Virus record (IMG/VR): IMGVR_UViG_3300028886_000037
Coordinates: 128,001-192,000 of that record
Source of the DNA: a virus
Lineage: Duplodnaviria; Caudoviricetes
Reading direction: 5' to 3' (one strand)
Length of the DNA stretch: 64,000 nucleotides
Part shown: one piece after another, positions 7,859-25,577 of the stretch
Layout of the letters: every line of letters begins with the position of its first letter
Numbering within the stretch: the first letter of the stretch is position 1
The notes under the pieces: generated by a model
Databases searched by the model: none
The model's input: the letters and a program-made list of their open reading frames with translations, nothing else
What the model was told of the DNA's origin: nothing
Position numbers and translations under genes: made by a program

Positions 7859-8524
7859 TTAGATGTGCCTAAGACAGTTACTGTCGAGATCGGCTACGAT
7901 TCGTTCATAGCTGACACCGCGATCGAGCTTACTTTGGATCATCTCGCGATTATTGTCGATCAGACAGTCGACTTCGTCCCAGTCGAATCCGCCTTCGTCG
8001 TGCAGATAGTTCTCGAACTCGTCAATTGGATCCATCAGCGGACCTACTGCTTCTCGAATGAGAGCAAATCCCTCGTTCTTGAGGAGCTTCTTAGCAGCTC
8101 TCAGCTTCTTGAGATTCTCTTCAGTGTCCTTGTCGTCTTTCTCTTTCGACGGAACTGCTTTAGCCTTCGGATTGTACAGAGGCTTAGGCAGACAGCCCTT
8201 GCCAGGACCGCCGTGAGGAATTCCCTGATTGAGTCCAGTAGGACCGCTTACGCCCATCGAGAAGTCCTCTTCGACCACGTTGCTTAGTTCACGAACGAAG
8301 TCGATGATGCAGTCAAGCTCTTCTCTAGAGGCGTCAGTAGCTACAGCTACGTACTTGCCTGCGCAGACAGTTCCGTTGACGTAGCCGTCAAGGTCGGAAA
8401 GTTCTCCCTTTCCCCAAATTGCCTTCGATAGCTCATTGCTGACGCGTGAAGCCGTTGTCGAGTTTCCGAACTCGAACAAGAGGCTCATGTACTTTTCATC
8501 GACTACGATATTTTCCCATTCCAT
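7859..8524 (-). CDS. hypothetical late protein, candidate internal head protein
   Basis: AAKKLLKNEG..LIREA motif; TATAAATA at 8844-8851. Confidence 0.55.
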   Translation of the reverse strand: MEWENIVVDEKYMSLLFEFGNSTTASRVSNELSKAIWGKGELSDLDGYVNGTVCAGKYVAVATDASREELDCIIDFVRELSNVVEEDFSMGVSGPTGLNQGIPHGGPGKGCLPKPLYNPKAKAVPSKEKDDKDTEENLKKLRAAKKLLKNEGFALIREAVGPLMDPIDEFENYLHDEGGFDWDEVDCLIDNNREMIQSKLDRGVSYERIVADLDSNCLRHI

Positions 8525-8527
8525 ATT

Positions 8528-8839
8528 TTACTCCTTGATGAGTTTCATACCCACAGAATTTAGAATTTTCTCTGCTTCTTGTAAACCCCTGTTTCTGAAG
8601 CACCAAGACTTTAGCCAGTCTGTGCAAGCGTCGAGCGCCTGCAGATTGTTGTCGAAAGCGAAAGTGAACGCGTTGCCGATACACCAGCATCCCATGAAGA
8701 ACTCACGATACTTGGACAGCTCGCCATTAAGGGCTTTAGAGAATTCGACTCTAACCTTGATGGCAGACTTTTGGCTGTTCATCTTGAATAGTGCGGAACA
8801 CTCGTCATCATCTACATCAATGTCTAAAAGTCTAATCAT
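8528..8839 (-). CDS. hypothetical protein
   Basis: ORF directly after a late promoter. Confidence 0.6.
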   Translation of the reverse strand: MIRLLDIDVDDDECSALFKMNSQKSAIKVRVEFSKALNGELSKYREFFMGCWCIGNAFTFAFDNNLQALDACTDWLKSWCFRNRGLQEAEKILNSVGMKLIKE

Positions 8840-8854
8840 ACATTATTTATATGA

Positions 8855-13184: not shown

Positions 13185-13874
13185 TTACCATTCCTTTGTG
13201 CCATCTGCGCCCTTGTGTTCGATCAGGGCTTCCATAGAGTCATACTTGACGTAGCCGCTTTCGTGAATCTTCGCAGCGCCGCTCTCGATAACAGCCTTGA
13301 TGTCTTCCCAGTCTGCCTTGAAGTCATCCACAGAAGTGTACTTCTTGCCGTTGATCTGGCACTGGAGATCGGGCCATTCCTGTTCGCAGTAGCCGTTCAC
13401 GTCGCGGCCCCAGCCGTAGTGAGTCGAAGAGTCGGTAGTGCGCTTCGGCTCGTAGACTCGAACGATCTCGTACCATTTGCCGTCTTGAGCCTTGTACATG
13501 AAAGCCGAGACCCAAGCGAGAGTCTGATGATGACCGTTTATGTGACCCTCATAGTTGGCGTAGACAGACGGATAGAGGAATTCGGCGGGCATAGAGTTCC
13601 AGGTCTCGGAGATCTTCTCCCACCGTTCGATCATCTTTGTCGCTTCGTTGTGAGCCTTGACGAGACGCTTTGCCTTGCGGATCTTCCTTGCGTTCTTGAC
13701 AGGATCAGTTTCCTTGTCGACGTTAGCAGTAGCGCGATCGGACTGCAGACGGAGCTTCTTTTCCTGTTCCCTCCAGTGTTCGAGAACCTTAGCGTTGTAA
13801 GCGCGACGGTCCTGACAGACGCAGTGCTTGCCAGTGAGTTCGTAGATGGAAGAGAGATCGGAAATAGTGACCAT
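13185..13874 (-). CDS. hypothetical early protein
   Basis: ORF after early promoter with AAGGAG RBS. Confidence 0.7.
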   Translation of the reverse strand: MVTISDLSSIYELTGKHCVCQDRRAYNAKVLEHWREQEKKLRLQSDRATANVDKETDPVKNARKIRKAKRLVKAHNEATKMIERWEKISETWNSMPAEFLYPSVYANYEGHINGHHQTLAWVSAFMYKAQDGKWYEIVRVYEPKRTTDSSTHYGWGRDVNGYCEQEWPDLQCQINGKKYTSVDDFKADWEDIKAVIESGAAKIHESGYVKYDSMEALIEHKGADGTKEW

Positions 13875-14045
13875 TGAAGGCTCCTTGTTGAAGTTACATG
13901 ATCAATATAGGTATTTCCCTGAGAAATCTAAACCCCTAAAATCAAGAAAATCTACAAAAATAGGCAGACACAGTCACTGCCATGTCTGCCTGTATCGTCC
14001 TATTTGGCCCAGAACGATATTTGTTTTTCGGCTTTATCTGTGTAG

Positions 14046-14130
14046 TCCTCCAGGAGAGACTCGAACTCTCACGGGCATATTGCCCACCTGCCCCTCAAGC
14101 AGGCCCCTATACCAATTCGGGTACCGGAGG
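14046..14130 (-). tRNA. tRNA-Leu(GAG)
   Basis: cloverleaf, CCTGC-TT GAG GG-GCAGG, long variable arm. Confidence 0.9.
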
Positions 14131-14134
14131 AAAA

Positions 14135-14277
14135 CGAGATTCATTTTAGCGGACCGCCTCCTTTAACCACTTGGATATCTCCGCGAATGAGGTTGTTATG
14201 CGGAGAGACAGGATTCGAACCTGCGAAGGCGCAAGCCAGCGGTTTTACAGACCCTGGGAATTGCTGTTAGAATCTCT
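14135..14277 (-). ncRNA. ACAGCA-scaffold RNA E1 carrying circularly permuted tRNA-Tyr(GTA)
   Basis: GAGATTC/GAATCTC terminal stem + ACAGCAA; tRNA 3' half precedes 5' half. Confidence 0.8.
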
Positions 14278-14279
14278 AG

Positions 14280-14352
14280 CAGGGAAGACAGGATTTGAAC
14301 CCATACCTCGCAGATTTGGAGTCTCGTGTGCTGCCAGTTGCACCACTTCCCT
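14280..14352 (-). tRNA. tRNA-Trp(CCA)
   Basis: CT CCA AA loop; AGGGAAG/CTTCCCT, G73; imperfect anticodon stem. Confidence 0.8.
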
Positions 14353-14469
14353 GAATGCCTCTTTTGATCAATTTCAGAACTTGATCCTGCTGGTGGTAGT
14401 TTTCGATCACAGTGAAGTATCTCGAATTCACTGCTCTCTAGAGCAGAGGCTGAACCTTATCATTCCATA

Positions 14470-14542
14470 TTGCCCGTGATGGACTCGAACCACCGAATAC
14501 ACGAGTCAGAGTCGTGTGCCTTACCAACTTGGCGAACGGGCA
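14470..14542 (-). tRNA. tRNA-Gln(CTG)
   Basis: CACGA-CT CTG AC-TCGTG. Confidence 0.9.
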
Positions 14543-14549
14543 GAAAAAC

Positions 14550-14932
14550 ATGATAGGGACGCCGATCGTTGCTCATTTAAGGCTTATTGATCAGCCGCTG
14601 CTTCGTGTCTCTTCTCTCTTGATCCGAATAGCAGCTTACAAAAGATCAGTCAACGGTTTCTCGTTGACGCTATCTGGTGTGACCAGCACTATCTCTATTC
14701 TTATTAGAGCAAGCACCAAGTTCTTCGTCTTGGAACTAGTAGAGACTGGCATGACCTTACTGAGCAGTTTGCCCAGGAGTTAGACCGATGTTCTGACCAT
14801 CAGCCAAGGGAGCTGAGATTCAAGCTGTGCTGCTCAGCTCTCGCCCTGTCCTCGTTAGCCAAGGCAATTTCCAGTTGCTCTACGCTGCATCGGTTTGTAG
14901 GAATTAAGCTTTAGAGTTGCTGTGCCTATCAT
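14550..14932 (-). ncRNA. ACAGCA-scaffold RNA E2 with ~360-nt structured cargo
   Basis: ATGATAGG/CCTATCAT stem + ACAGCAA; internal hairpins; no minus-strand ORF. Confidence 0.6.
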
Positions 14933-14936
14933 TAAG

Positions 14937-15069
14937 AATCTCTGATGACGCATTACTGAGCTATCCTTTACGCGTTCTCAGCCACTATTCCGCAACTTAT
15001 GCTACTGCACTAGCCCCAAAAGGATCTACCTTGGACGGGCTTTTACTTACATCATCTTCATCAGTGATT
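14937..15069 (-). ncRNA. GATGTAAGTA-type stem RNA, copy 1
   Basis: AATCACTGATGA/TCATCAGAGATT outer stem; motif shared with 20624-20677. Confidence 0.45.
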
Positions 15070-15072
15070 TAG

Positions 15073-15146
15073 TCCCATAGCCGAGATTCGAACCCGAACT
15101 TCATGCGCCACAAGCATGCGTGCTAACCAATTAACACTACTGCGGG
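15073..15146 (-). tRNA. tRNA-His(GTG)
   Basis: CATGC-TT GTG GC-GCATG. Confidence 0.85.
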
Positions 15147-15151
15147 GATGT

Positions 15152-15238
15152 GTAACGAGAGCGTGATGGTGGGCAGTTTAGAACTGCCAAGAATCCTTGC
15201 GGATCACCATCTTCATTTCACCATCACGTTCTCGTTAC
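15152..15238 (-). ncRNA. long hairpin enclosing a T-arm-like module
   Basis: 20-bp outer stem enclosing ATCC-GCAA-GGAT and GGCAG-TTCTAAA-CTGCC. Confidence 0.55.
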
Positions 15239-15242
15239 TTAG

Positions 15243-15316
15243 TAGCTCTGTCGGGACTTGAACCCGAATTTCTAGCTTGAGAGGCTAACGAACTAAACCA
15301 GTTATTCGACGGAGCC
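15243..15316 (-). tRNA. tRNA-Glu(CTC)
   Basis: TTAGC-CT CTC AA-GCTAG. Confidence 0.9.
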
Positions 15317-15321
15317 AAAGA

Positions 15322-15440
15322 CGAGATTCACTTTAGCGGGACTCGAACCCGTAACCTCTTCACTATTTCAGTGAAGTGCTCTACCAATTGAGCTATTTTC
15401 CCAACGGCGGAAAAAACCAGAGTTTGCTGTTGGAATCTCT
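15322..15440 (-). ncRNA. ACAGCA-scaffold RNA E3 carrying an acceptor-less tRNA body
   Basis: GAGATTC/GAATCTC + ACAGCAA; D arm, CTTCACT-GAAAT-AGTGAAG arm and T arm, no acceptor stem. Confidence 0.75.
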
Positions 15441-15442
15441 AG

Positions 15443-15514
15443 AGCACCTAGCGAGGATCGAACTCGCGACTACAGTTTGGAAGACTATCATGTTAGCCAC
15501 TACACCATAGACGC
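15443..15514 (-). tRNA. tRNA-Gly(TCC)
   Basis: CT TCC AA loop, U73. Confidence 0.9.
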
Positions 15515-15520
15515 GGATGT

Positions 15521-16210
15521 TTAATTTATAGAGGAGAGGGTGGGATTCGAACCCACGGAGGTTTCCTCCTCATATAATTTAGTAAAATCATTTCCATACT
15601 TATTTTCGACGTATTCTAAGTATGGCTTAATCTCTCTTTTCGTAATAATCGAAAGCTCTTTAGGAAATTGGTCATATTTTGCTTGCCACTGCTTAGACCA
15701 ATATCCCTTCAATTCAACATATTTTCCATCGACTATGAAGTCTGGAAGATAGTTATATTCTTTGCCTTCGAATATGTACTTAAACTTTTCTTTGTTCCTT
15801 TCGAATTTTATTCCGTGTTCAAGATTATATATCACGTATGCTAGTTCCCAAGAGCTGTCGCAGAAATATCCTTTATACCAACCCTTCTTTCCACGACCAG
15901 ATCCTTTACGATAGCCACCTAATGTGTGCCTAATCTTATTAGTCTCTTTTATCTTTTGTCGTGTTTCTTCCGTTTGGGCATGTTTCTTATATTCGACCCT
16001 TTCTGGATTCTTATAACATCTTTTTTCATGGAATCTCAGTGTATGCTTATATTCAAAATAGTTTCCGCAAAATTTACAATTTCCACCTTTATTAAATAGG
16101 AATTTCTTATGCTCTTTTTTATGATTTTCAGACTTATGTTTCTGAAGATCTCTTCTACTAGTACCGACATATTCACAGAATGAACATGGCCAAGTGTATG
16201 ATAATCTCAT
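15521..16210 (-). CDS. Zn-finger + PD-(D/E)XK homing endonuclease
   Basis: C2H2 fingers; DSSWE..YLPDF..VELKGY; AT-rich; reads into the tRNA fragment. Confidence 0.85.
   Translation of the reverse strand: MRLSYTWPCSFCEYVGTSRRDLQKHKSENHKKEHKKFLFNKGGNCKFCGNYFEYKHTLRFHEKRCYKNPERVEYKKHAQTEETRQKIKETNKIRHTLGGYRKGSGRGKKGWYKGYFCDSSWELAYVIYNLEHGIKFERNKEKFKYIFEGKEYNYLPDFIVDGKYVELKGYWSKQWQAKYDQFPKELSIITKREIKPYLEYVENKYGNDFTKLYEEETSVGSNPTLSSIN
15532..15571 (-). pseudogene. 3' fragment of disrupted tRNA-Ser
   Basis: variable arm, T arm and CCTCTCC, complementary to GGAGAGG at 16391-16397. Confidence 0.8.
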
Positions 16211-16230
16211 ATTACTCTCTCAAAGAAGTA

Positions 16231-16318
16231 AAGCGGGTGTCCGATTCGAACGGACGAGAGGTTTTAACCTCTGCTTGGGTTCAGGCCAAGTGCGATAAAC
16301 CAACTCCGCCAACCCGCC
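16231..16318 (-). tRNA. tRNA-Ser(TGA), nested inside the insertion
   Basis: CTTGG-CC TGA AC-CCAAG, long variable arm. Confidence 0.85.
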
Positions 16319-16354
16319 ATAAATTATTTATACAATCAAGACTAGTGCTTTTTG

Positions 16355-16397
16355 CCAGTTTCAAATCCGGATCCATAAACCACTCGGACACCTCTCC
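16355..16397 (-). pseudogene. 5' fragment of disrupted tRNA-Ser(TGA)
   Basis: GGAGAGG-TG-TCCGAGTGGTTTATGGA-TCCGGA TT TGA AA CTGG, then unrelated sequence. Confidence 0.8.
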
Positions 16398-16404
16398 AAA
16401 GTAG

Positions 16405-16492
16405 AGGCGGGTGCAGGATTCGAACCTGCGGCTCCTTTATGGGGAGCAACTCGTTAGCACCGAGCCGGTTTAGACCACTCACCCAACCCGCC
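16405..16492 (-). tRNA. tRNA-Ser(GCT)
   Basis: GCTCG-GT GCT AA-CGAGT, long variable arm. Confidence 0.9.
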
Positions 16493-16495
16493 ATA

Positions 16496-16569
16496 TCCAC
16501 CCGCTAGGACTTGAACCTAGAACCTCGGGGTTATGAGTCCCTTGCACCAACCAATTGTGCTACAGATGG
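16496..16569 (-). tRNA. tRNA-Met or Ile2 (CAT)
   Basis: CT CAT AA loop. Confidence 0.8.
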
Positions 16570-16574
16570 GAATC

Positions 16575-16707
16575 AAGATGTCATCTGTGCTCCCGGGGCT
16601 GGACTCGAACCAGCAGCCTTCTGGCGTCTTACTGAGGAAGGTCCTCTGCGACAGCCGTTCTAACCAGTTGAACGTACCCTGGAAAATAGAATTGCGGTTG
16701 ACATCTT
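16575..16707 (-). ncRNA. scaffold RNA E4 (ACCGCAA variant) carrying an Asn-like tRNA with an expanded anticodon arm
   Basis: AAGATGTCA/TGACATCTT stem; D and T arms intact, anticodon arm enlarged by about 20 nt. Confidence 0.7.
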
Positions 16708-16714
16708 TTATTAG

Positions 16715-16761
16715 AGCTACCAGCAGGACTCGAACCTGCGAAGGGATGAACCCAGCAGATT
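16715..16761 (-). pseudogene. orphan 3' tRNA half (U73, long variable arm; Cys-like)
   Basis: AATCTGC-variable arm-GCAGG TTCGAGT CCTGC-TGGTAGC-T, starting at the endonuclease stop. Confidence 0.75.
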
Positions 16762-17374
16762 ATAACAATTTACTGAGGATTCCCTCTATATAGGTTCGTT
16801 TAGCCTCTTTAGGAAGACGTTGGTATTCGGACCAATTACAGCGTCCTAATAGCGTCCATCCTTGCTCCTTTAAATTCTCTGTTCTTTCTTCATCATGTAA
16901 TTTTCCTTTTGATGTGTAATGCGTCTTGCCATCAACTTCAAAATAAAGCTTTTTATCAGGCCATGCAAAATCTAACCAATAGGGTTTTACATAATAGTTA
17001 TTTTCAAATTTTACGTTCTCATTTGTAAAAATGTTAAACCAACTTTGCTCAGCATAACTTCGTTTTCGTCTTCCTATCCATGAACTTGCGCGTCCTTCTC
17101 TATGTGCTTTTTTCATTCCGAGAGAAATTCTTTTGCATATAGCTTCGGTGTTTTTATGTCCTTTACATCGCAGCTTATTTGGATTCTTCTCGCAATGCAT
17201 TTCATGTCTAGTCATTTCACCACGAGTAATATGCTTGATTTTACCGCAGTATTTACATTTTAAATCATATTTAGGTGCTTGGCCATTTTTAATCTTATGT
17301 TCTTCGCTTTTATGCTTATAGAGCTTTCTACGTGATTCGATTTCAGCACCGCAATGTTCGCATACCCAAATCAT
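16760..17374 (-). CDS. Zn-finger + DUF559/Vsr-like homing endonuclease
   Basis: YWLDFAWP..FEVDGKTH. Confidence 0.85.
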   Translation of the reverse strand: MIWVCEHCGAEIESRRKLYKHKSEEHKIKNGQAPKYDLKCKYCGKIKHITRGEMTRHEMHCEKNPNKLRCKGHKNTEAICKRISLGMKKAHREGRASSWIGRRKRSYAEQSWFNIFTNENVKFENNYYVKPYWLDFAWPDKKLYFEVDGKTHYTSKGKLHDEERTENLKEQGWTLLGRCNWSEYQRLPKEAKRTYIEGILSKLL

Positions 17375-17396
17375 TTTTATTTCTCCATTTTAGCTT

Positions 17397-17478
17397 TATA
17401 GTCGTTCCAGCGACCATATTATTTATAGCAGTTAGAAGAACTGGAGATGTTCCTCAGCTGGCTGGAACCAGTTGTCCC
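17397..17478 (-). promoter_or_regulatory. structured endonuclease leader copy 2
   Basis: GGGACA-hairpin(TTCCAG)-CTGA-hairpin-CTAAC-TATAAATA-hairpin(CTGGAA). Confidence 0.7.
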
Positions 17479-17487
17479 ACTATAGTA

Positions 17488-17575
17488 AGCGCTCAGTTGG
17501 ATTTGAACCAACGTGGAGATTTCTCTCAGCGGCTTTGCAGGCCGTGGTCTTCGACCAGGCTCGACCCATGAGCGC
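17488..17575 (-). tRNA. tRNA-Cys(GCA) with long variable arm
   Basis: CGGC-CT GCA AA-GCCG, U73. Confidence 0.85.
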
Positions 17576-17586
17576 ATATTGTTTAG

Positions 17587-17660
17587 TACTCCGTCCAAGA
17601 TTCGAACTTGGATCAAGGGCTTCGTAGGCCCGTATGCTGAGTCCATTACACCAACGGAGC
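17587..17660 (-). tRNA. tRNA-Arg(ACG)
   Basis: CT ACG AA loop. Confidence 0.9.
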
Positions 17661-17665
17661 ATAGT

Positions 17666-17781
17666 CAAGATAACGTCTTTTGAGCTGAGTCCTGAGCCAC
17701 TAGACGACACCGGTATACGCCGATGACTGGATTCGAACCAGTGTTGCAGCTTTGGGATAGTGAAGATGCTGTTGTTATCTT
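17666..17781 (-). ncRNA. ACAGCA-scaffold RNA E5 carrying a circularly permuted tRNA (CCC, Gly-like)
   Basis: AAGATAAC/GTTATCTT; TCCCAA-AGCTG, T arm, acceptor closed by loop, D arm, CAGCT. Confidence 0.8.
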
Positions 17782-17785
17782 ATAG

Positions 17786-17868
17786 TCCTCCAGGAGGGAC
17801 TTGAACCCTCACGCCATTTCTGGCACCAGTTCCTAAGACTGGCGTGTCTGCGATTCCACCACCAGAGG
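17786..17868 (-). tRNA. tRNA-Leu(TAG)
   Basis: CCAGT-CT TAG GA-ACTGG. Confidence 0.9.
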
Positions 17869-17872
17869 ATAG

Positions 17873-17945
17873 TGCCACCCCTCCGTAACGATCGGAGATC
17901 CTCGGATTTTCAGTCCGTTGCATAGACCATCTTTGCTAGAGTGGC
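17873..17945 (-). tRNA. tRNA-Phe(GAA)
   Basis: CT GAA AA loop; atypical T loop ATCGTTA. Confidence 0.8.
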
Positions 17946-17950
17946 ATAAT

Positions 17951-18008
17951 CGAGATTCTTTTGTTTCTTAACCAAAAAGAAGATTTTAGAGTTGCTGTAA
18001 GAACCTCT
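17951..18008 (-). ncRNA. minimal ACAGCA-scaffold RNA E6
   Basis: GAGGTTCTT/AAGAATCTC + ACAGCAA. Confidence 0.65.
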
Positions 18009-18011
18009 TAG

Positions 18012-18085
18012 TCGGCAACCTTGGACTTGAACCAAGAACCTCTGCCTTATCAGAGCAGTGCTCTAACCAATTGAGCTAGATGCCG
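18012..18085 (-). tRNA. tRNA-Ile(GAT)
   Basis: CT GAT AA loop. Confidence 0.9.
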
Positions 18086-18096
18086 ATAAAAAATTT

Positions 18097-18165
18097 CAAG
18101 ATCCATTTTTCTAACGTAGTCTGATTACCAATCGGATGTTATAAGAATTTTGCAGTTAGGATCTT
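18097..18165 (-). ncRNA. scaffold RNA E7 (ACTGCAA variant)
   Basis: AAGATCC/GGATCTT stem. Confidence 0.6.
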
Positions 18166-18171
18166 TAGTAG

Positions 18172-18200
18172 TCTCCGATCAGGGATTCGAACCCCGGACC
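18172..18200 (-). pseudogene. 3' fragment of disrupted tRNA (Val-like)
   Basis: T arm + ATCGGAG-A, pairing with CTCCGGT at 18963-18969. Confidence 0.8.
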
Positions 18201-18211
18201 TGAAACTTTTA

Positions 18212-18285
18212 TCTTCGACCTAGGACTTGAACCTAGAACATCCGTCTTGTAAGGGCGGCGCTCTAACCAATTGAGCTAGCCGAAG
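18212..18285 (-). tRNA. tRNA-Val(TAC), nested inside the insertion
   Basis: CCGCC-CT TAC AA-GACGG; overlaps the endonuclease stop. Confidence 0.9.
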
Positions 18286-18919
18286 TTACGAACGATTTAA
18301 TTGATGAAATTGCCTCTGAAGTATTTCTCATTATGTACTTCCAAGTCAATCTCAGACATTTCCAACCGTTCTCTTTGCAATAAGTGTCTTTTTCGACATC
18401 CATTGCTTTTCTGCTGGGCCATTCATGTTGAGATCCATCAATTTCCAGATAGATCTTTAATTCTGGCCAAGCAAAATCCATGAACCATTTGCCAAAATGA
18501 TATTCTTCAACAAATGGAAAATTAGAAAGCTCCGTTTCGAGTAACCTCTTTGTCCATTCTTCAGCATAAGATCTTTTACATTTACTTCTCGACGACCACC
18601 AGATTCCGCCATTTTCTTTTATCTGTTTCTTACGAATTTCAGATAGCTTCTTCTTTGTGGCTTCAGTATGTTTAGATCCCAAGCGTAAGGCATTTTCGCC
18701 TGAATACCTTTTGCTAAAAGTTTCACTTGCTTGTTTTACTCTCGGATCATTATCCTTAGTTAGTCCTTTGTTCCAAGAAGGATGAGATTTAGAAAAGCCG
18801 TGTTCATCTTTGTGATGTTTCTGGAGTTCTCGTCTCGTTCTACCAACGAACGGACAATACTTGCAGCACCAGTCACCAGATGCGTTTTTCTGTTTTCTCT
18901 CTTTCTCATATCTTCCCAT
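18263..18919 (-). CDS. Zn-finger + NUMOD3 + DUF559-like homing endonuclease
   Basis: SWNKGLTK; WFMDFAWP..LEIDGSQH. Confidence 0.85.
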   Translation of the reverse strand: MGRYEKERKQKNASGDWCCKYCPFVGRTRRELQKHHKDEHGFSKSHPSWNKGLTKDNDPRVKQASETFSKRYSGENALRLGSKHTEATKKKLSEIRKKQIKENGGIWWSSRSKCKRSYAEEWTKRLLETELSNFPFVEEYHFGKWFMDFAWPELKIYLEIDGSQHEWPSRKAMDVEKDTYCKENGWKCLRLTWKYIMRNTSEAISSIKSFVTSASSIG

Positions 18920-18933
18920 ATTTTATTTATAGG

Positions 18934-18969
18934 AAGGATGGCACTCTGAACCAGCTGAGTTAACCGGAG
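18934..18969 (-). pseudogene. 5' fragment of disrupted tRNA (Val-like)
   Basis: CTCCGGT-TA-D arm-CCATC-CTT, then TATAAATA. Confidence 0.8.
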
Positions 18970-18975
18970 AGATAG

Positions 18976-19049
18976 TGCCCCACCAAGGACTTGAACCTTG
19001 AACTCTCTGCTTAAGAGGCAGATACTCTAACCAATTGAGTTAGTGAGGC
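18976..19049 (-). tRNA. tRNA-Lys(CTT)
   Basis: TCTGC-CT CTT AA-GCAGA. Confidence 0.9.
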
Positions 19050-19055
19050 ATATAG

Positions 19056-19128
19056 TTCCGGTAGCAGGGATCGAACCTGCGACTTTCTCCGTATGAAGGA
19101 GATGCTCTACCAACTGAGCTATACCGGG
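19056..19128 (-). tRNA. tRNA-Met(CAT)
   Basis: TCTCC-TT CAT AC-GGAGA. Confidence 0.85.
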
Positions 19129-19198
19129 GGGAAATCCACTGGCAGTTTGTGAGATACTGCCTAAACTCCTGAGGGCTACCTCAGAAAGCTAAAAGATA

Positions 19199-19270
19199 CG
19201 AGATAGAGTGGCCTTGCGCCACGAAACCGCATGATGGAGCAGAGGGGTGAAACTTGCTGTGTCTATCTCA
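19199..19270 (-). ncRNA. ACAGCA-scaffold RNA E8
   Basis: GAGATAGA/TCTATCTC + ACAGCAA; GCAA tetraloop hairpin. Confidence 0.65.
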
Positions 19271-19277
19271 AATTTAG

Positions 19278-19351
19278 TAGCGCCATCGGGACTCGAACCC
19301 GAATTTCCGACTTGAAAGGCCGGTGAACTGAACCAGTTATTCGATGGCGCC
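19278..19351 (-). tRNA. tRNA-Glu(TTC)
   Basis: CT TTC AA loop. Confidence 0.9.
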
Positions 19352-19356
19352 AAAAG

Positions 19357-19465
19357 CGAGATACGTTCTTTGTGTATAGCCCATCTGACTTTCGTCAGAC
19401 TTGCAGCTTTTCAGCTTATGGATTCGAACCACTTACAGTAAGAAATCATTGCTGTTTGTATCTCT
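19357..19465 (-). ncRNA. ACAGCA-scaffold RNA E9 with a T arm and two GAAA hairpins
   Basis: GAGATAC/GTATCTC; GTGG-TTCGAAT-CCAT; AGCT-GAAA-AGCT; TCTGAC-GAAA-GTCAGA. Confidence 0.7.
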
Positions 19466-19595
19466 TTTTCAAATGTGTCAGATACGGCGGATTCGAACCG
19501 CGATCTCAGACGTTGCGACATCTGGGACTTTTTGCACCGTCTCCACGACGGGACCGAAGCTACCTGCTTGTCAGAAGAGATAGAGTTCGCAACCT

Positions 19596-20414
19596 CTAAA
19601 ACTTCCTATCGGTACATATCCTACGCTTAGTAGCGGGACCGGGACTAGAGTCCCGGTCAGAAATGCTAAAACTTTCTTGAATTTTGATAGTCTGTAATAA
19701 TCTGAAAATTTCGTTTTCTCTTTCAATTTTAGAAAGTTTTTGAAATTCAGACCATCTAATTCTTTTTAAGAGCATCCAACCGTTTTCTATTAAAAATTCC
19801 GTTCTGATCTTGTCGTGTTCGATACCTTCTTTAGTATAGTGCTGTTCTCCATCAACTTCAATGTATATTTTTGATTTAGTCCATGCAAAATCTAAAGTAT
19901 ATCGGCCAACTTGATGTTGAGTTTCGGCATCTGTAAATATAGTTTCAAAATACTCTTCAGCATAAGATTTTCTTTTGTTTAACCAATTACAGTGTGTACC
20001 GCTAAGATTTTTAATAGCTGCATCTGATAATTTCCTTTTAGTTTCATCCGAAGTTTTATGACCTTGCCAAATTTGCTTATTCGGATTTTCTTTACAAAAC
20101 TTTTCGTGTCTTGTTAAATCGCAAGCTCTTTTATAAATTAAACCACAGAATTGACAAGGTATGTTTAAATCTGGATGATAGCCATAGAATTTACCTTTGA
20201 TTTCGTTAATATGTCCTTCTTTGCGATGCTGTTGTAATCTACTTCGTGAATGAAAATCATTGCCACAAATTGAACATTTCCAAATTTTAGAATTCTTTTG
20301 TATTCCTCTATTCGGATTTTTAAGACACTGCTTAGAAATGTGTGTTCCTAATTGTGCCCCAGTAGTAAACTCCATGTTACAAAATTTACATATATGTTTT
20401 ATTTCCAATTCCAT
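19596..20414 (-). CDS. multi-Zn-finger + DUF559-like homing endonuclease
   Basis: three C2H2-like fingers; YTLDFAW..IEVDGEQH; start MELEIK after TATAAATA. Confidence 0.85.
   Translation of the reverse strand: MELEIKHICKFCNMEFTTGAQLGTHISKQCLKNPNRGIQKNSKIWKCSICGNDFHSRSRLQQHRKEGHINEIKGKFYGYHPDLNIPCQFCGLIYKRACDLTRHEKFCKENPNKQIWQGHKTSDETKRKLSDAAIKNLSGTHCNWLNKRKSYAEEYFETIFTDAETQHQVGRYTLDFAWTKSKIYIEVDGEQHYTKEGIEHDKIRTEFLIENGWMLLKRIRWSEFQKLSKIERENEIFRLLQTIKIQESFSISDRDSSPGPATKRRICTDRKF
19631..19657 (-). pseudogene. degenerate 3' fragment of initiator-type tRNA
   Basis: CCGGG..CCCGG-TCCCGCT-A, same 3' end as the intact fMet. Confidence 0.55.
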
Positions 20415-20453
20415 ATAGTATTTATAACATGAGCTAACCACTGCTCTAAATTA

Positions 20454-20537
20454 TAGCGGGAGCCAGAGTCGGACTGGCACAAGCATTATCTGTCCCTGGG
20501 TTATGAGCCCAGTATCTTACCATTAGACTATCCCGCG
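20454..20537 (-). tRNA. initiator tRNA-fMet(CAT) with enlarged variable region
   Basis: C1 mismatch; CTGGG-CT CAT AA-CCCAG. Confidence 0.8.
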
Positions 20538-20544
20538 ATAATAG

Positions 20545-20619
20545 TGGACCGTAAGGGAATCGAACCCTTGACATCCAGCTTGCAAAGCTGGCGCTCTACC
20601 AAAACTGAGCTAACAGCCC
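20545..20619 (-). tRNA. tRNA-Ala(TGC)
   Basis: G3.U70; TT TGC AA. Confidence 0.9.
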
Positions 20620-20623
20620 GAAA

Positions 20624-20677
20624 GAATCTGTGAATGGCTCTGACCTCGAAAGGTTCTCCGTACTTACATCACAGATT
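20624..20677 (-). ncRNA. GATGTAAGTA-type stem RNA, copy 2
   Basis: AATCTGTGA/TCACAGATT outer stem. Confidence 0.45.
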
Positions 20678-20681
20678 TTAG

Positions 20682-20754
20682 CTGTCCCACCTGGACTCGA
20701 ACCAGGGACGGGGTGATTAACAGTCACCTACTCTACCAACTGAGCTATGGGACA
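20682..20754 (-). tRNA. tRNA-Asn(GTT)
   Basis: GGTGA-CT GTT AA-TCACC, G73. Confidence 0.9.
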
Positions 20755-20771
20755 TTAAAGATAAAGCCGAA

Positions 20772-20812
20772 GATTTCAATATGCAGATCGGATTCTCGAT
20801 CCAGATCTTTTT
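20772..20812 (-). promoter_or_regulatory. boxB/boxA-like leader (also 24049-24087 and 26360-26395)
   Basis: AGATC..hairpin..GATCTGCATATTGA repeated three times ahead of tRNA runs. Confidence 0.6.
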
Positions 20813-20894
20813 TGTTTGATTCTAATATAGAAACTTCTTTCGGGTTTGTAAACCCTCTTTCTCAGAATTTTTTGAGAAAGTTGTTTATTTATAG

Positions 20895-20967
20895 CTCCCT
20901 GTGGACGACTTGAACGACCGACATCGAAATTACAAATTTCGCGTTCTACCAACTGAACTAACAGGGA
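20895..20967 (-). tRNA. tRNA-Thr(TGT)
   Basis: CGAAA-TT TGT AA-TTTCG. Confidence 0.85.
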
Positions 20968-21052
20968 ATAAGAGCGCTGAGGATATGAGTGAAAAGCTAT
21001 CTCGAGTTCACAGTTCATCGGATATCCTCTCTAAGCATCCTCATCTTCACGT

Positions 21053-21127
21053 GATCGACGAGTGGATTGGAACCACCGCACCAGGCCCCGAATGGGCCTG
21101 CGCTCTACCATGCTGAGCTACGAAGAT
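21053..21127 (-). pseudogene. aberrant tRNA-like element (Pro-like)
   Basis: D and T arms present; 7-bp anticodon stem with 5-nt loop; poor acceptor stem. Confidence 0.55.
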
Positions 21128-21156
21128 ACGTCCTTGAATTCAGACGCTTAGATTAG

Positions 21157-21240
21157 TGGGTAAGGTAGGATTCGAACCTACTAAGCCCGAAGGCAACGGC
21201 TTTACAGGCCGCCCCAACTCACCATCGTTGGCGCTTACCC
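21157..21240 (-). tRNA. tRNA-Tyr(GTA)
   Basis: GCGGC-CT GTA AA-GCCGT, long variable arm. Confidence 0.9.
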
Positions 21241-21528
21241 TTGTACGGCCGGTCATTTATAGTCTTGTGACCGAAGACTTTACCCAACTCACGCTTATGC
21301 CGTTATTTTTCGCGATAGAACCATCACATGTGATGGTAGAATCGAATTCAAGATTCCAGCGGCCTGGTCAGGATGCTTATGCCTATGCTCTCCCCTGACT
21401 CCTTCACAGCCTTCGTCCGCTTGTCTATACGGACTTCTGCTGATCAACCAGTAAGCGCCCTTCCATTGGATCCAATTGACGGCGAAGTAGCGCTCAATGT
21501 AGCGGCCTTTGCAAGGATGGCGACTCCA

Positions 21529-22230
21529 CTATTGCCAGAGTCTCTCCTTCAATTCATAGCGGGACCGATGGGATTCGAACCCACAGCCTCCAGCCTTATT
21601 TTCATAAAGCATTTCTATTCGTTCAGTCCCGTATTTTTTATAAACGTACTCTAAATACTTTTTCATCTCTCTTCTATATAGGACGATTAACGGATATTTG
21701 AAAGTTCTTAATTTTTCCTCCCATCTATTATTTCTACGTCCTTTTATTTCATAATATGTATCGCCTATTTTAAAATCAGGATAGTATTTATGGATTTCTC
21801 CATTGCTTACATATTCAAAGCCTATTTTATTTCTCTCAAATTCTATTCCGTGATCTAAATTATAAATTACGAAAGCTAATTCCCAACGTGAATTGCAATA
21901 AAAGCCTTTATACCATCCAGAATAAATAGTACCAGATTTTTCTCTATAACCACCGCATCCAGCAGCTTTAGAAGTCTCTCTTAACTTCTCTTTTAATTCG
22001 TCCGTCATTCTATGCTTTCTATAGCAATCTTTACAAAATCCGGTCGAATTACGATTATCTAAAGATTTTCCGCAGTCTTTACAAAATCTCTTTTCAGTTT
22101 TTGAAAATAGTTTTGATAGTCTTCTCTTTAGTTCTTCTGTTCTTATTCTGCTATTAGCGCATGCTCTTGAGCAGAATCTTCCGCTTCCAAAAGAGCCATC
22201 ATGCTCTTTTCCACATTTTTCGCAGATCAT
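21529..22230 (-). CDS. Zn-finger + PD-(D/E)XK homing endonuclease
   Basis: CEKCG..RFCSRAC; NSRWE..YYPDF..YEIKGR. Confidence 0.85.
   Translation of the reverse strand: MICEKCGKEHDGSFGSGRFCSRACANSRIRTEELKRRLSKLFSKTEKRFCKDCGKSLDNRNSTGFCKDCYRKHRMTDELKEKLRETSKAAGCGGYREKSGTIYSGWYKGFYCNSRWELAFVIYNLDHGIEFERNKIGFEYVSNGEIHKYYPDFKIGDTYYEIKGRRNNRWEEKLRTFKYPLIVLYRREMKKYLEYVYKKYGTERIEMLYENKAGGCGFESHRSRYELKERLWQ
21560..21595 (-). pseudogene. orphan 3' half of tRNA (Asp-like)
   Basis: GGCTGG-AGGCT-GTGGG TTCGAAT CCCAT-CGGTCCC-G73, inside the endonuclease 3' end. Confidence 0.75.
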
Positions 22231-22254
22231 ATAGCCTCTTTTAACTTTATTTTA

Positions 22255-22339
22255 ACGAGGATCCTTCCATATCCTCGTATTATTTATAGAGGTTAGATCG
22301 AATGGCGAATTCGATCAGGAGGTGGAAGCCTCTTGTCCC
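22255..22339 (-). promoter_or_regulatory. structured endonuclease leader copy 3
   Basis: GGGACA-hairpin(CTTCCA)-CTGA-hairpin-CTAAC-TATAAATA-hairpin(TGGAAG). Confidence 0.7.
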
Positions 22340-22348
22340 TCTTTTTAA

Positions 22349-22422
22349 CGATGCCGGCGAGATTCGAACTCGCGTATGTCGGTTAGACAGACCGATGTGT
22401 TAGGCCACTTCACCACGGCACC
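22349..22422 (-). tRNA. tRNA-Asp(GTC)
   Basis: TCGGT-CT GTC TA-ACCGA, G73. Confidence 0.9.
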
Positions 22423-22427
22423 AGAGA

Positions 22428-23290
22428 CGAGATAGTTTTTCTTACGCGCTCTACCAGTTGAGCTACCTCACAGCATGGCTGCAAGGACGTTAAAATACAC
22501 ATCTCAATAATATCTTCCTATTAGTAATTTATCAGAACTAAAAGCCGATGAATTACAAATATATTCTTTATATTTTGGTATATAACACTTAAATAATCTT
22601 ACAATTTCTGGCAAAAGAGGAATGTTTTCTAATTTTGCAAATTCTCTAATTGACTTATAATTTCCAGAATGGAAATAGTCCCATAATTCCCTTGCTCTAT
22701 TAAATGCACTTATTTTACTTTTGTTAAAGAGTATACTATTTTCTCCTCTAAATAGATTTCTTCCAAGAACCCAATCCTTATTAGGTAAAATTTTGAATTT
22801 TTTGCATTCTCCATTGATTCTATTCGTATACCATTTAGTTCCGTATTGTGAATTTTTATTTCCTTTTTGTTTCAATTTCATACTTTCAGAAACGTATTTT
22901 GCAAATTCTGTTCTAAGCTTTTCGTATGCTCTAGAATTCATATAACGACTCTTATCTTCTGTAGGATGTCCTCTCATCCTCCAGAAGGCATACATCATTT
23001 TTCTTCTCTCATCTGTTCCCTTCTTGAATATCTTTACCAATAGCCAATGACAGAGGAAATGCTCTCTAGCAGTCAAAGGAACTAAGTTATCACGTTGATC
23101 CGATCCTCCTAAAGAACTAGGAAGAATATGATGTTCTTCATAATAACCTTCCGGTTTTCCTCTTATCTTTGCCCTATATACTATTTTCAGATAAACTTTT
23201 CTATAATCCATGTATTATTTATACATTTCATATCTCGAACCCGCAACATCGGTCTTAACAGGACATTTGAGAGTTGCTGTAACTACCTCT
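22428..23290 (-). ncRNA. ACAGCA-scaffold RNA E10 (permuted Asn-like tRNA) interrupted in its T loop by an HNH gene
   Basis: halves 23234-23290 and 22428-22489; GAGGTAGTT/AACTATCTC stem. Confidence 0.75.
22504..23211 (-). CDS. HNH homing endonuclease
   Basis: EEHHILPSSLGGSD..NLVPLTAREHFLCHWLL; TATAAATA upstream. Confidence 0.9.
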   Translation of the reverse strand: MDYRKVYLKIVYRAKIRGKPEGYYEEHHILPSSLGGSDQRDNLVPLTAREHFLCHWLLVKIFKKGTDERRKMMYAFWRMRGHPTEDKSRYMNSRAYEKLRTEFAKYVSESMKLKQKGNKNSQYGTKWYTNRINGECKKFKILPNKDWVLGRNLFRGENSILFNKSKISAFNRARELWDYFHSGNYKSIREFAKLENIPLLPEIVRLFKCYIPKYKEYICNSSAFSSDKLLIGRYY

Positions 23291-23340
23291 AAAATTCAAA
23301 CTGACCCTACTCACCTCAACGCGTCTTATTGGCTTTCAGT

Positions 23341-23412
23341 TAGCGCATGCGAGACTCGAACTCGCAGCCAGCGGCTTTCGACCGCCCGTTCTTCCATTGA
23401 ACGATATGCGTT
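23341..23412 (-). pseudogene. aberrant tRNA-like element (GAA in a non-canonical loop)
   Basis: D and T arms present; GGCGG-TC GAA AG-CCGCT lacks U33. Confidence 0.55.
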
Positions 23413-23427
23413 ATCAGTTAAACACAG

Positions 23428-23500
23428 CGCTGGAAGACAGGCTCGAACTGCCGATCGTCTGCTTACGAAGCAGCTGCTCTACCAGCTGAGCTATTCCAGC
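23428..23500 (-). tRNA. tRNA-Thr(CGT)
   Basis: TT CGT AA loop. Confidence 0.85.
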
Positions 23501-23700
23501 GAATAAGAGTACCGGACCCGAGTTTCTTTCCAGAGCGTCCTCTAGTCTTACGCTCGGGTCCTAGATCAAATCGTGCAGTATGGCAGTGAGGTTGGTCTCC
23601 TTCTCACATCTACGGCGCTAATGCTTAAATCGACCAAAGTGTCGAACCGTGCTCTTTTTATAGACATCTAAGCTATGCCTTGCACAATGTTGATCGTTAG

Positions 23701-23774
23701 TCGGGCATGCAGGATTCGAACCTGCGACCTGGTGCTCCCAAAGCATCCGCTCTACCAGACTGAGCTAATGCCCG
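23701..23774 (-). tRNA. tRNA-Pro(TGG)
   Basis: TT TGG GA loop; CGG/CCG-A acceptor. Confidence 0.9.
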
Positions 23775-23959
23775 ATGACGCCAGTACTAATTCTTGCATG
23801 AAAGTTCCTGACTTGCGAATCTCCTATACTGAAAGAAAATATATCCGCGACGATCGGATGCACTTTGTAGTCCACGTCCAGAGTATGCAACCTCCAGAGC
23901 GTAGAGCCTCTGTTCTTACCACAGTTCATTTTCTATCGCCAGTGTGATCGGCCATTTAG

Positions 23960-24033
23960 TGGACACAGATGGGGTTCGAACCCATGACCCTCTGCTTGCT
24001 AAGCAGATGTTCTACCAGCTGAACTACTGGCCC
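23960..24033 (-). tRNA. tRNA-Ala(AGC) with bulged acceptor
   Basis: TCTGC-TT AGC AA-GCAGA; G3.U70. Confidence 0.7.
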
Positions 24034-24167
24034 ATAAGAAGTTTCCGGTTTTTCAATATGCAGATCCGGTTCTCGACTGGATCTTTTGTTGTTGATCAAA
24101 ATATACTAAAACGAAGCGGAGTTGTAAATACCTCCGCTTCAAAAAATTTGAATTTTTTTGATGGAGG

Positions 24168-24575
24168 TTACCTGATAGGATCCTTGAGCATGTTTAGATA
24201 CTTCAGAGAGCAGAAGGCATCCTTCAGAACGTGGCGCTTGTTGTAGTACTTGATCTGCCATTCGAACTTGCGGTATGGACGGTAACCGAGCAGCTGAGCT
24301 TCTGTGCCGTCTTCGCAGCGGAACCAATGACCGATAGGACTCTGACCTTCTAGCGAAGTTCCCTTGAGCATATCCTTGAGCTGATCAAGAACATAGCCTG
24401 GAATCTTTGCGTCTCCCGAGGCGTCTACTTCTGCCAGCTCTAGAATGCACTTAGCTTCGTAGTCGCTGTACTTGAATGAGATTCCGTTGAGACGGAGGTT
24501 GTTCTCCTTTGCCCAGTCCTTGAGCACCGGATTGAGTTGTTCGCGGAGAGAGTCGCACTTGCTAGAATTGAACAT
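24168..24575 (-). CDS. hypothetical protein
   Basis: ORF with AAGGA RBS after TATAAATA. Confidence 0.65.
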   Translation of the reverse strand: MFNSSKCDSLREQLNPVLKDWAKENNLRLNGISFKYSDYEAKCILELAEVDASGDAKIPGYVLDQLKDMLKGTSLEGQSPIGHWFRCEDGTEAQLLGYRPYRKFEWQIKYYNKRHVLKDAFCSLKYLNMLKDPIR

Positions 24576-24608
24576 GTCTTTATCCTTGTTGTGTTTGTTT
24601 ATTTATAG

Positions 24609-24699
24609 TTGAGCAGGCTGGATTCGAACCAGCGACGGAGGAACTTCCTCTCTAGTGGCTTCAAAGGCCACCGCCTTGACCAGACTTGGCGACTGCCCA
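24609..24699 (-). tRNA. tRNA-Gln(TTG) with long variable arm
   Basis: GTGGC-CT TTG AA-GCCAC; U1-A72. Confidence 0.8.
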
Positions 24700-24705
24700 A
24701 GATAG

Positions 24706-24788
24706 TAGCCGAGGAGAGACTCGAACTCTCACGAGGTTGCCCTCCATGAATTTTAAGTTCACTGCGTCTTCCGTTCCGCCACTCGGCC
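24706..24788 (-). tRNA. tRNA-Leu(TAA)
   Basis: CT TAA AA loop, long variable arm. Confidence 0.9.
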
Positions 24789-24794
24789 AGATTC

Positions 24795-24986: not shown

Positions 24987-25019
24987 AAGATCTCCAAGTT
25001 TTTAGTGTTGTATTTATAG

Positions 25020-25091: not shown

Positions 25092-25200
25092 GAGTTCTGC
25101 TTCTTTATCCAAGGGATGCAGACAGACCTTGTACGATGAACGGCAGTTTGGTGTGAGCTCGTTCGGGGTATCATGTGAGCTCATTGCCGTTCGCTCATAG

Positions 25201-25574: not shown

Positions 25575-25577
25575 GTG

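Follow-up and report, generated by a model that had tools for sequence, protein, structure and literature searches.

A rotated tRNA-Tyr body on a conserved RNA handle in a large rumen phage: a likely YrlA-like tRNA mimic accompanied by a Ro60-shaped protein

The window analyzed here is a stretch of 64,000 nucleotides, bases 128001-192000 of the IMG/VR virus record IMGVR_UViG_3300028886_000037. The record comes from a large cattle-rumen phage and, because it is 247,923 bp long and judged 98% complete, we regard this virus as a jumbo phage. ARAGORN predicts 37 tRNA genes on the minus strand of the window, in an array spanning 14045-27415, with open reading frames (ORFs) of the DUF559/Vsr-like, zinc-finger and NUMOD3 endonuclease types interspersed among them. 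Between tRNA-Trp(cca) and tRNA-Leu(gag) of this array lies an element of 141 nt (14276-14136, minus strand), whose 105-nt cargo (14254-14150) is a complete class II tRNA-Tyr(GUA) with its halves exchanged: the 3' half comes first, then a 15-nt linker and the 5' half. A 7-bp terminal stem together with UA-ACAGCAA forms what we call the handle, which appears to clamp the rotated body. We consider it likely that this element specifies a YrlA-like tRNA mimic working in a Ro/Y-type particle and probably opened by RNase P. The parts of the element and its flanks, in 5' to 3' order along the minus strand, are as follows.

14279-14352, minus strand: tRNA-Trp(cca), the upstream neighbour of the rotated element, with the same synteny in three other metagenome contigs (L157-L159)
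14270-14276, minus strand: GAGAUUC, the handle 5' strand of the 7-bp closing stem, pairing with 14142-14136 and used by the minimum free energy (MFE) fold
14261-14267, minus strand: the ACAGCAA handle motif, 2 nt (UA) past the stem, invariant in the MAFFT alignment A1 described below
14251-14254, minus strand: local GGGU, a copy of the anticodon-stem 5' strand, of which GGU can pair with 14243-14241
14244-14250, minus strand: anticodon loop CUGUAAA, with the anticodon GUA at 14248-14246 (direct reading, ARAGORN)
14239-14243, minus strand: anticodon-stem 3' strand ACCGC, making 5/5 pairs with the distal GCGGT at 14157-14153
14225-14238, minus strand: long variable arm of 14 nt with a GGC/GCC stem and a UUGC loop, a class II feature (ARAGORN drawing)
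14208-14224, minus strand: T arm GCAGG/UUCGAAU/CCUGU (ARAGORN and helix table)
14207, minus strand: an extra C separating the T stem from the acceptor strand, kept in L157, L158, L159 and the diverged ortholog L155
14199-14206, minus strand: acceptor 3' strand UCUCCGC and discriminator A73 (14199), without an encoded CCA
14185-14198, minus strand: linker of 14 nt, which together with A73 makes the 15-nt loop closing the acceptor stem
14178-14184, minus strand: acceptor 5' strand GCGGAGA, then UA; RNase P is predicted to cut immediately 5' of G14184
14159-14175, minus strand: D arm UCC/AAGUGGUUAAA/GGA (in DNA, TCC/AAGTGGTTAAA/GGA), with the same D loop as the Type A relatives described below
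14153-14157, minus strand: distal anticodon-stem 5' strand GCGGU (positions 27-31), then CC
14136-14142, minus strand: handle 3' strand GAAUCUC, then G14135 and UUUU; tRNA-Leu(gag) begins at 14130
14045-14130, minus strand: tRNA-Leu(gag), the downstream neighbour of the rotated element (ARAGORN, Rfam)
13962-13991, minus strand: intrinsic terminator closing the tRNA array transcript, a 12-bp stem and a T run

In its native order the element gives neither a tRNA call by ARAGORN nor an Rfam match, and when it is un-permuted by joining GCGGT to CTGTAAA, ARAGORN returns an 84-nt tRNA-Tyr(gta). Direct reading and this call bear out the half-swapped arrangement on the minus strand proposed in an initial annotation of this DNA, which had also rightly described a linker of about 15 nt (15 nt including A73) and the GGTC duplicated at both ends of the rotated body (14253-14250 and 14155-14152). 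The acceptor stem consists of 7/7 Watson-Crick pairs (14206-14200 with 14184-14178), and the distal anticodon strand stands one nucleotide (G) past the D arm, matching real tRNA spacing. G1:C72, A73, GUA, the long variable arm and all elbow nucleotides are retained. The parts named in the initial annotation are as it described them, but it missed the extra nucleotide at 14207, which would kink the coaxial stack of acceptor and T stems; likewise, its span of 14150-14254 captures the tRNA body but omits the 7-bp closing stem and ACAGCAA (14276-14261 and 14142-14136), by which the element is defined. As a result of the rotated order, the acceptor stem is closed by the 15-nt loop and the RNA ends leave the body at the anticodon stem. 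A strict scan of all 248 kb of the genome for a T arm, a 7/7 acceptor hairpin and a D arm found only this site and two poor chance matches.

The Tyr element has what defines a handle family, namely a covarying stem of 6-9 bp followed, after 0-2 nt, by ACAGCAA on the side of the 5' strand. Ten minus-strand inter-tRNA elements in the window follow the scheme (A/U)AGAGAU-nnn, 0-2 nt, ACAGCAA ... nnn-AUCUC-G; their inner stem bases covary (UUC/GAA, AGG/CCU, GUC/GAC, AAC/GUU and others), and ACCGCAA, ACTGCAA and ACAGCAT occur among them as variants of the motif. The siblings of the Tyr element are the following handle elements.

14550-14932, minus strand: sibling of 383 nt
15323-15439, minus strand: sibling with a normal-order tRNA-like cargo lacking an acceptor stem (Rfam partial tRNA at 15335-15396, model positions 7-64)
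16575-16707, minus strand: sibling also present in the close relative L003
17667-17781, minus strand: sibling with a rotated tRNA body lacking an anticodon loop
17952-18007, minus strand: sibling with a small hairpin cargo
18098-18165, minus strand: sibling
19199-19270, minus strand: sibling
19358-19464, minus strand: sibling with a T-arm cargo
22429-23289, minus strand: sibling of 861 nt, interrupted by an ORF

The cargo at 17667-17781 has an ACUGG/UUCGAAU/CCAGU T arm, an acceptor hairpin of 6 bp and a D arm, along with a helix resembling an anticodon stem (CAGCU/AGCUG), and is nearer to the classic YrlA design than the Tyr element. Across the whole genome there are 12 strict handle elements, of which 11 fall in two places: ten are those of the array and one (G000 207454-207399, minus strand, outside the window) lies directly upstream of, and on the same strand as, a gene for a DUF2828 protein, which is discussed below.

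Beyond this genome, a handle followed by a T loop was found in at least 119 viral contigs, where about ten chance matches are estimated. A strict closing stem, counting Watson-Crick pairs only, is present at 91 of 151 motif sites, compared with 13 of 151 when the downstream sequence is shuffled. Element lengths cluster at 54-93 nt and at 100-140 nt. When the cargos are circularised, ARAGORN calls tRNAs in 39 elements; circular ARAGORN yields spurious anticodons at arbitrary joins, and only cargos with one dominant anticodon were read as real anticodon hairpins. Many cargos had a single stable anticodon, among them Phe-GAA, Arg-ACG, Leu-UAA, Asn-GUU, Cys-GCA, Gln-UUG and Thr-UGU. These calls indicate that rotated tRNA bodies on the handle are recurrent in large phages. 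The lineage-specific pattern AGRT-NNNN-ACAGCAA occurs at one site only in eight cultivated phages, since stem sequences differ between phage groups, and in the literature ACAGCAA was found in primers only.

Near-identical copies of the Tyr element follow tRNA-Trp in three separate metagenome assemblies (L157, L158 and the 298-kb contig L159). In L155 the acceptor stem is wholly different, CGGCUCC/GGAGUCG, but still pairs, and the handle stem also shows compensating changes (GAGAUCC/GGAUCUC). L155 retains the T arm, the anticodon arm, A73 and the extra C; once rotated, it too is called tRNA-Tyr(gta) by ARAGORN. The pattern of handle, CUGUAAA and T loop occurs in 24 further viral contigs, and about 20 other large phages have rotated Tyr bodies whose D, anticodon and acceptor stems are compensated. 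The relatives fall into several sequence types with a single layout: handle, ACAGCAA, spacer, short local strand, CUGUAAA, anticodon 3' strand, variable region, T arm, a 7-bp acceptor stem with a 5-15-nt loop, D arm, one nucleotide, the distal anticodon 5' strand, an A-rich stretch, and the handle again. The linker varies among them in both sequence and length (ATAACTACC.., ATAATAACCTCTTC, ATACGA). Type A shares with the element here the D loop (AAGUGGUUAAA) and the T arm, whereas its D stem is compensated (UCC/GGA here, GGG/CCC in Type A) and the anticodon stem (27:43 and 31:39) and the acceptor stem show paired changes between the two. Across types, pair 27:43 covaries as A:U, C:G and G:C.

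These changes were quantified in A1, a MAFFT alignment of 13 distinct elements that was not fitted to structure. In A1, 84.7% of the cells are paired, compared with 75.9% in column shuffles (0 of 500 reach the observed value) and 34-55% when the partners are slid, and 15 pair changes on both sides are observed where 8.0 are expected. Pairing is 100% in the T stem, where three pairs are compensated, and 92.5% in the distal anticodon helix, where two pairs have changes in both strands; the local 3-bp anticodon stem (GGU/ACC) is paired in 100% of the 13 elements.

Both the local 3-bp stem and the distal 5-bp stem (GCGGU/ACCGC) are therefore conserved. The terminal redundancy recurs in relatives, as GGA in Type A and CGGUC in L155; L138 has the local strand only, without a distal strand, and Type B makes 4/5 distal pairs. 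A composite stem (positions 27-28 distal, 29-31 local) would close the 7-nt loop on 5 bp, with the handle leaving mid-stem. Computed folding energies are -43.7 kcal/mol for the MFE fold and, for the cloverleaf, -33.0 with the distal stem and -31.1 with the local stem.

The nucleotide between T stem and acceptor strand is C here, U in Type B and absent in Type A, which also keeps a C-C mismatch at 2:71. In both Type A and Type B phages, ACCA stands in the element right after the acceptor strand, inside the loop. CCA is encoded by 45/45 tRNA genes in Type A phages, 31/44 in Type B phages and 0/67 distinct tRNA genes of the lineage studied here (the window array and L003), and the 3' tail of the mimic mirrors the style of each phage's tRNA genes, with no CCA here and ACCA in Types A and B. 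The conservation of CCA inside a loop makes sense if the loop gets opened to expose it. The initial annotation had favoured a "non-chargeable" mimic, and chargeability is a point on which we cannot follow it, given that the body keeps G1:C72, A73, GUA and a long variable arm, that relatives conserve ACCA, and that YrlA of M. smegmatis gains a CCA (PMC4201824). As a separate observation, most tRNA genes of this lineage, in the array and in L003, have CUA directly after the discriminator, which resembles a conserved trailer.

The DUF2828 gene beside the outlying handle element encodes a protein of 501-520 amino acids with DUF2828 and DUF7788 domains, about 65 kb from the Tyr element and adjoining a gene for an Rnl1-type RNA ligase (81 bits). 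The ORF scored 68.8 bits for DUF2828 in the genome search and, as a protein, 97.7 bits for DUF2828 and 138.7 bits for DUF7788, with a weak vWA_Ro60 match (E 0.0097). The genome also encodes an Rnl2-type ligase and, beside the DUF2828 gene, an AAA_33 kinase; RtcB was not found in it by Pfam, nor was the tRNA splicing endonuclease PF01974 at E <= 0.1. An AlphaFold2 model of the DUF2828/DUF7788 protein built with 36 homologs has a predicted local distance difference test score (pLDDT) of 82 and a predicted template modelling score (pTM) of 0.82. All 13 structure matches with E <= 0.001 are Ro60/TROVE proteins aligned over the full length, and include Xenopus and human Ro60, Rsr of D. radiodurans and Ro60 of the Thermus phage phiLo. 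The DUF2828-type family has more than 6,400 members; its kinship with Ro60 is not recognised by sequence annotation, and a literature search found no paper linking DUF2828 to RNA.

DUF2828 accompanies the handle in other viruses as well. Of 50 viral records that bear the handle, 37 encode it, as do 21 of the 22 whose completeness is at least 90%; the lone near-complete record without it has a motif match without a closing stem. Among eight cultivated tRNA-rich large phages examined as a control, DUF2828 occurs in three (KVP40, GAP32 and Felix O1) and was not found in T4, T5, S-H9-1, Phass-1 and phiKZ. In KVP40 (L171, reverse strand 1247-1286), an element made of a 6-bp stem, UU and ACAGCAA overlaps the start of the DUF2828 gene. 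A handle element placed at the DUF2828 gene could serve for autoregulation, as a site where the protein binds the mRNA that encodes it.

Y RNAs that contain a tRNA-like domain and partner with Ro60 are known from bacteria and a few phages. The general idea that, in some jumbo phages, a ROT/TROVE protein works with a tRNA-like RNA in RNA repair has been published (PMC7824862). YrlA and the mycobacteriophage Y RNAs (RF02553; PMC4201824; 10.1101/312249) resemble the element here in several respects: the RNA ends form a terminal stem; the T arm, the D arm and a loop-closed acceptor-like stem together read as a rotated tRNA; the RNA ends emerge at the position of the anticodon stem; and a Ro60-fold partner, putative in the case of the element here, is encoded together with RNA-repair enzymes. 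The 7-bp acceptor stem is shared with YrlA from M. smegmatis, which RNase P cleaves both in living cells and in vitro, its 5' piece then gaining CCA (PMC4201824). Further, the Rfam YrlA model aligns to the element as stem, T arm, acceptor hairpin, D arm and stem. By contrast, the putative partner here is a DUF2828/DUF7788 protein and not Pfam TROVE; the cargo is a whole tRNA-Tyr, with an anticodon arm, GUA, a long variable arm and a doubled anticodon-stem 5' strand; and there are ten copies with interchangeable cargo in a tRNA array, whereas YrlA is single and adjoins rsr. The YrlA model made no call in ten related loci. The topology is thus YrlA-like, and the element is not a member of the YrlA (RF02553) family. 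A 28.5-bit YrlA match elsewhere in the window (21079-21203) proved to be two adjacent tRNAs and not a Y RNA.

Another family of small RNAs, the dictyostelid Class I RNAs (RF01414; PMC7919456), likewise has a covarying end stem, a single-stranded motif after the 5' strand and a variable body, but they measure 42-65 nt and lack a tRNA body, and the letters of their motif are not printed in PMC7919456. RF01414 had no match at E <= 10 or E <= 1 in 13900-14500, 14100-14300 and 14500-23400.

Taken together, we hypothesize that the element would be co-transcribed with the tRNA array, that 3' processing of tRNA-Trp would free its 5' end, and that RNase P acting at the 5' end of tRNA-Leu would free its 3' end. 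The handle would then be bound by the Ro60-shaped DUF2828/DUF7788 protein of the phage, while the tRNA-shaped body would show tRNA-Tyr features to tRNA-binding enzymes. By analogy with YrlA of M. smegmatis, the acceptor loop is probably opened by RNase P, with formation of a CCA end, and the opened product would be a two-piece RNA held by its helices. Such a particle most likely serves tRNA damage, repair, surveillance or decoy roles in infection rather than decoding. The initial annotation also preferred a mimic to a precursor for ligation, on the ground that an intact tRNA-Tyr exists in the array; we reach the same preference on different grounds, namely the handle family, the YrlA topology and the Ro60-shaped protein.

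Several points weigh against this reading. That the DUF2828 protein binds the handle is something that we infer only because the two co-occur and are adjacent; by the criterion used here, no handle is found within 1.3 kb upstream of the DUF2828 gene in Felix O1 and GAP32, and Pfam TROVE was not found in the genome at E <= 0.1. The handle here is stem-NN-ACAGCAA, and the Ro-binding motif of YrlA, GNCGAA(N0-1)G in its terminal module (PMC4201824), is absent (GNCGAA sought in 14276-14255 and 14152-14131); the Rfam YrlA model scores 14.5 bits, compared with a gathering score of 69. Nearest-neighbour folding favours the local hairpin (-43.7 kcal/mol) over the full cloverleaf (-33.0 kcal/mol). Energy models routinely under-rate tRNA folds. 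L003, the one close IMG/VR relative, lacks both the element and tRNA-Leu(gag), which makes the element dispensable. Finally, the complete identity set for tyrosyl-tRNA synthetase (TyrRS) and the conserved CCA of the relatives could equally mean genuine tRNA function.

That last point leads to the alternative that survives best, although we judge it unlikely: that the element is a true permuted tRNA gene. Cuts after GGU in both GGUC copies, followed by joining of U31 to C32 by the kinase and Rnl1, would produce a circular or handle-free intermediate, whose acceptor loop would be opened by RNase P and 3' processing to yield a decoding tRNA-Tyr. The body is as complete as such a gene requires, with its elbow nucleotides, 7-bp acceptor stem, G1:C72, A73, GUA and long variable arm; the redundancy falls precisely at 31/32, and relatives have it too (as GGA in Type A and as CGGTC in L155); the distal strand is one nucleotide past the D arm and covaries; relatives conserve CCA; and Rnl1, an Rnl2-type ligase and a kinase are encoded, with Rnl1 adjoining the handle-associated protein. 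On the other hand, many cargos of the family can never be tRNAs, being small hairpins or bodies without an anticodon loop or an acceptor stem; L138 lacks the distal strand and Type B has only 4/5 distal pairs; the extra nucleotide between T stem and acceptor strand is conserved and Type A keeps its C-C mismatch at 2:71; an ordinary tRNA-Tyr(GTA) is present in the same array, and L003 manages without the element. Nor is there a candidate endonuclease for both cuts, splicing endonuclease and RtcB not having been found in the genome.

Permuted tRNA genes are known in Cyanidioschyzon merolae, some green algae and Thermofilum pendens. Such genes are cited in PMC3400036 and PMC4238349. The likeness to such genes drawn in the initial annotation extends to the upstream 3' half, the short linker at the acceptor end, the opening in or near the anticodon arm, and a leader that pairs with the trailer, but it does not hold as an assignment. 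Here there is a plain 7-bp stem, ACAGCAA and an A-rich internal loop in place of a bulge-helix-bulge; no splicing endonuclease is found in the genome (PF01974, E <= 0.1); and the element is not the sole gene for its isoacceptor, the intact tRNA-Tyr that the initial annotation placed at 21157 being confirmed by ARAGORN as an ordinary tRNA-Tyr(gta) at 21156-21240. In addition, the element has a terminal redundancy of 3-5 nt, and members of its family are unable to become tRNAs. Circularly permuted ssrA genes, which in some alpha- and beta-proteobacteria and in cyanobacteria yield a two-piece tmRNA, offer a bacterial parallel: a permuted tRNA-like gene whose acceptor-end linker is removed to leave a functional two-piece RNA with a chargeable CCA. 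However, tmRNA has no anticodon arm and no Ro60-type partner, and has instead an mRNA module, SmpB and an action on the ribosome.

A related and similarly doubtful possibility is that the handle, the Ro60-shaped protein, the kinase and Rnl1 constitute a tRNA-assembly pathway giving a working tRNA-Tyr or, in a milder form, that the two-piece RNA is charged with tyrosine on the particle. If a tRNA-assembly pathway were true, it would give the first example of a permuted tRNA gene being matured beyond archaea and eukaryotes, through a ligase whose only known role to date is tRNA repair.

Less probable again is that the elements are cis-acting spacers of the tRNA operon, in which the closing stems are processing or stability signals (e.g., for RNase III or RNase E) and the cargo is harmless debris. 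The elements do lie between same-strand tRNAs without a promoter of their own, their cargo is highly variable, and homing-endonuclease ORFs and tRNA fragments are plentiful in the array. However, a spacer would not account for cargo helices that are compensated across distant phages, for a conserved single-stranded ACAGCAA that is needless for a duplex cleavage site, for the handle element outside the array beside the DUF2828 gene, or for the strong co-occurrence with a Ro60-fold protein.

We give very little credence to a functionless rearrangement relic, be it a unit-length piece of a tandem tRNA-Tyr pair or homing-endonuclease debris. The latter was at first favoured as rather likely and was dropped given the handle family and the compensated orthologs. 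DUF559/Vsr-like endonuclease ORFs in the array, the 4-nt GGTC redundancy, which resembles the scar of a staggered cut, the truncated tRNA-Gln adjoining an inserted ORF in L003 and the absence of the element from L003 would all suit a relic. The element is, however, embedded in a conserved handle and kept in four independent assemblies; the acceptor stem of L155 has been replaced yet is paired; and about 20 other phages carry homologous rotated Tyr bodies with compensated stems. Moreover, L003 keeps CTAGAGAT (in RNA, CUAGAGAU) after tRNA-Trp and its sequence resumes at an AGAT microhomology, which suggests loss in L003 rather than gain here. An assembly artefact joining two tRNA halves, which the initial annotation had named as a finding that would refute it, is hardly credible: only the oddity of the arrangement speaks for it, and the same element after tRNA-Trp in contigs of separate metagenome projects (L157, L158, L159, with L155 for arrangement and synteny), like the same architecture in many other phage contigs, speaks against it. 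Because of the independent assemblies and the compensated ortholog L155, both the artefact and the neutral relic were ruled out.

Searches by other routes were less productive. Exact-match scans of IMG/VR for the junction, for the unpermuted parent anticodon arm and for the 5' half gave no match, and BLAST against cultivated phages returned generic tRNA similarity only. Related loci were sought with two neighbouring genes; the 229-amino-acid ORF found none and the radical-SAM gene found L003 only. That ORF (13185-13874, minus strand) has no Pfam match and is inserted in comparison with L003, which aligns to the flanking sequence on either side of it. In L003 itself, the region 7993-8840 contains a tRNA-Gln(ctg) truncated in the T arm (at about 8040), an inserted ORF and a second, different full tRNA-Gln(ctg), an arrangement that looks like an endonuclease cassette breaking a tRNA gene and supplying the replacement. 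An unrelated G+C-rich contig, L154 (Ga0209431_10160919), carries on its minus strand, from about position 510, a small handle-like element (CCCCG...ACAGCAA...CGGGG) that carries nothing more than a perfect tRNA-Tyr anticodon arm (GCGGU CUGUAAA ACCGC).

Elsewhere in the array, the tRNA at 25019-25091 (minus strand) has the anticodon UUA, of the ochre-suppressor type, and may point to recoding or suppression of stop codons in the late phase of infection; at 26098-26174 (minus strand), ARAGORN calls a tRNA with a 2-nt 'anticodon'. A cow-rumen-2 RNA (RF02947) is found at 39394-39500 on the plus strand, with 98 bits compared with a gathering score of 66, a match that is consistent with a rumen origin of the phage.

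What sets the likely tRNA mimic described here apart from known YrlA-type mimics is its handle, its putative partner, an unannotated Ro60-fold protein, and its complete rotated tRNA-Tyr cargo. The handle is very widespread, accompanies a Ro60-fold family, and in this element displays a whole, identity-complete tRNA-Tyr, while the CCA inside the acceptor loop of the relatives predicts opening by RNase P. For annotation, the finding cautions that rotated phage tRNAs need not be pseudogenes or algal-style permuted genes. If our reading is true, many of the 'spacers' in phage tRNA arrays would encode tRNA mimics supplied to a viral particle of the Ro/Y type, and phage tRNA arrays, anticodon-nuclease defence and RNA repair would become linked.

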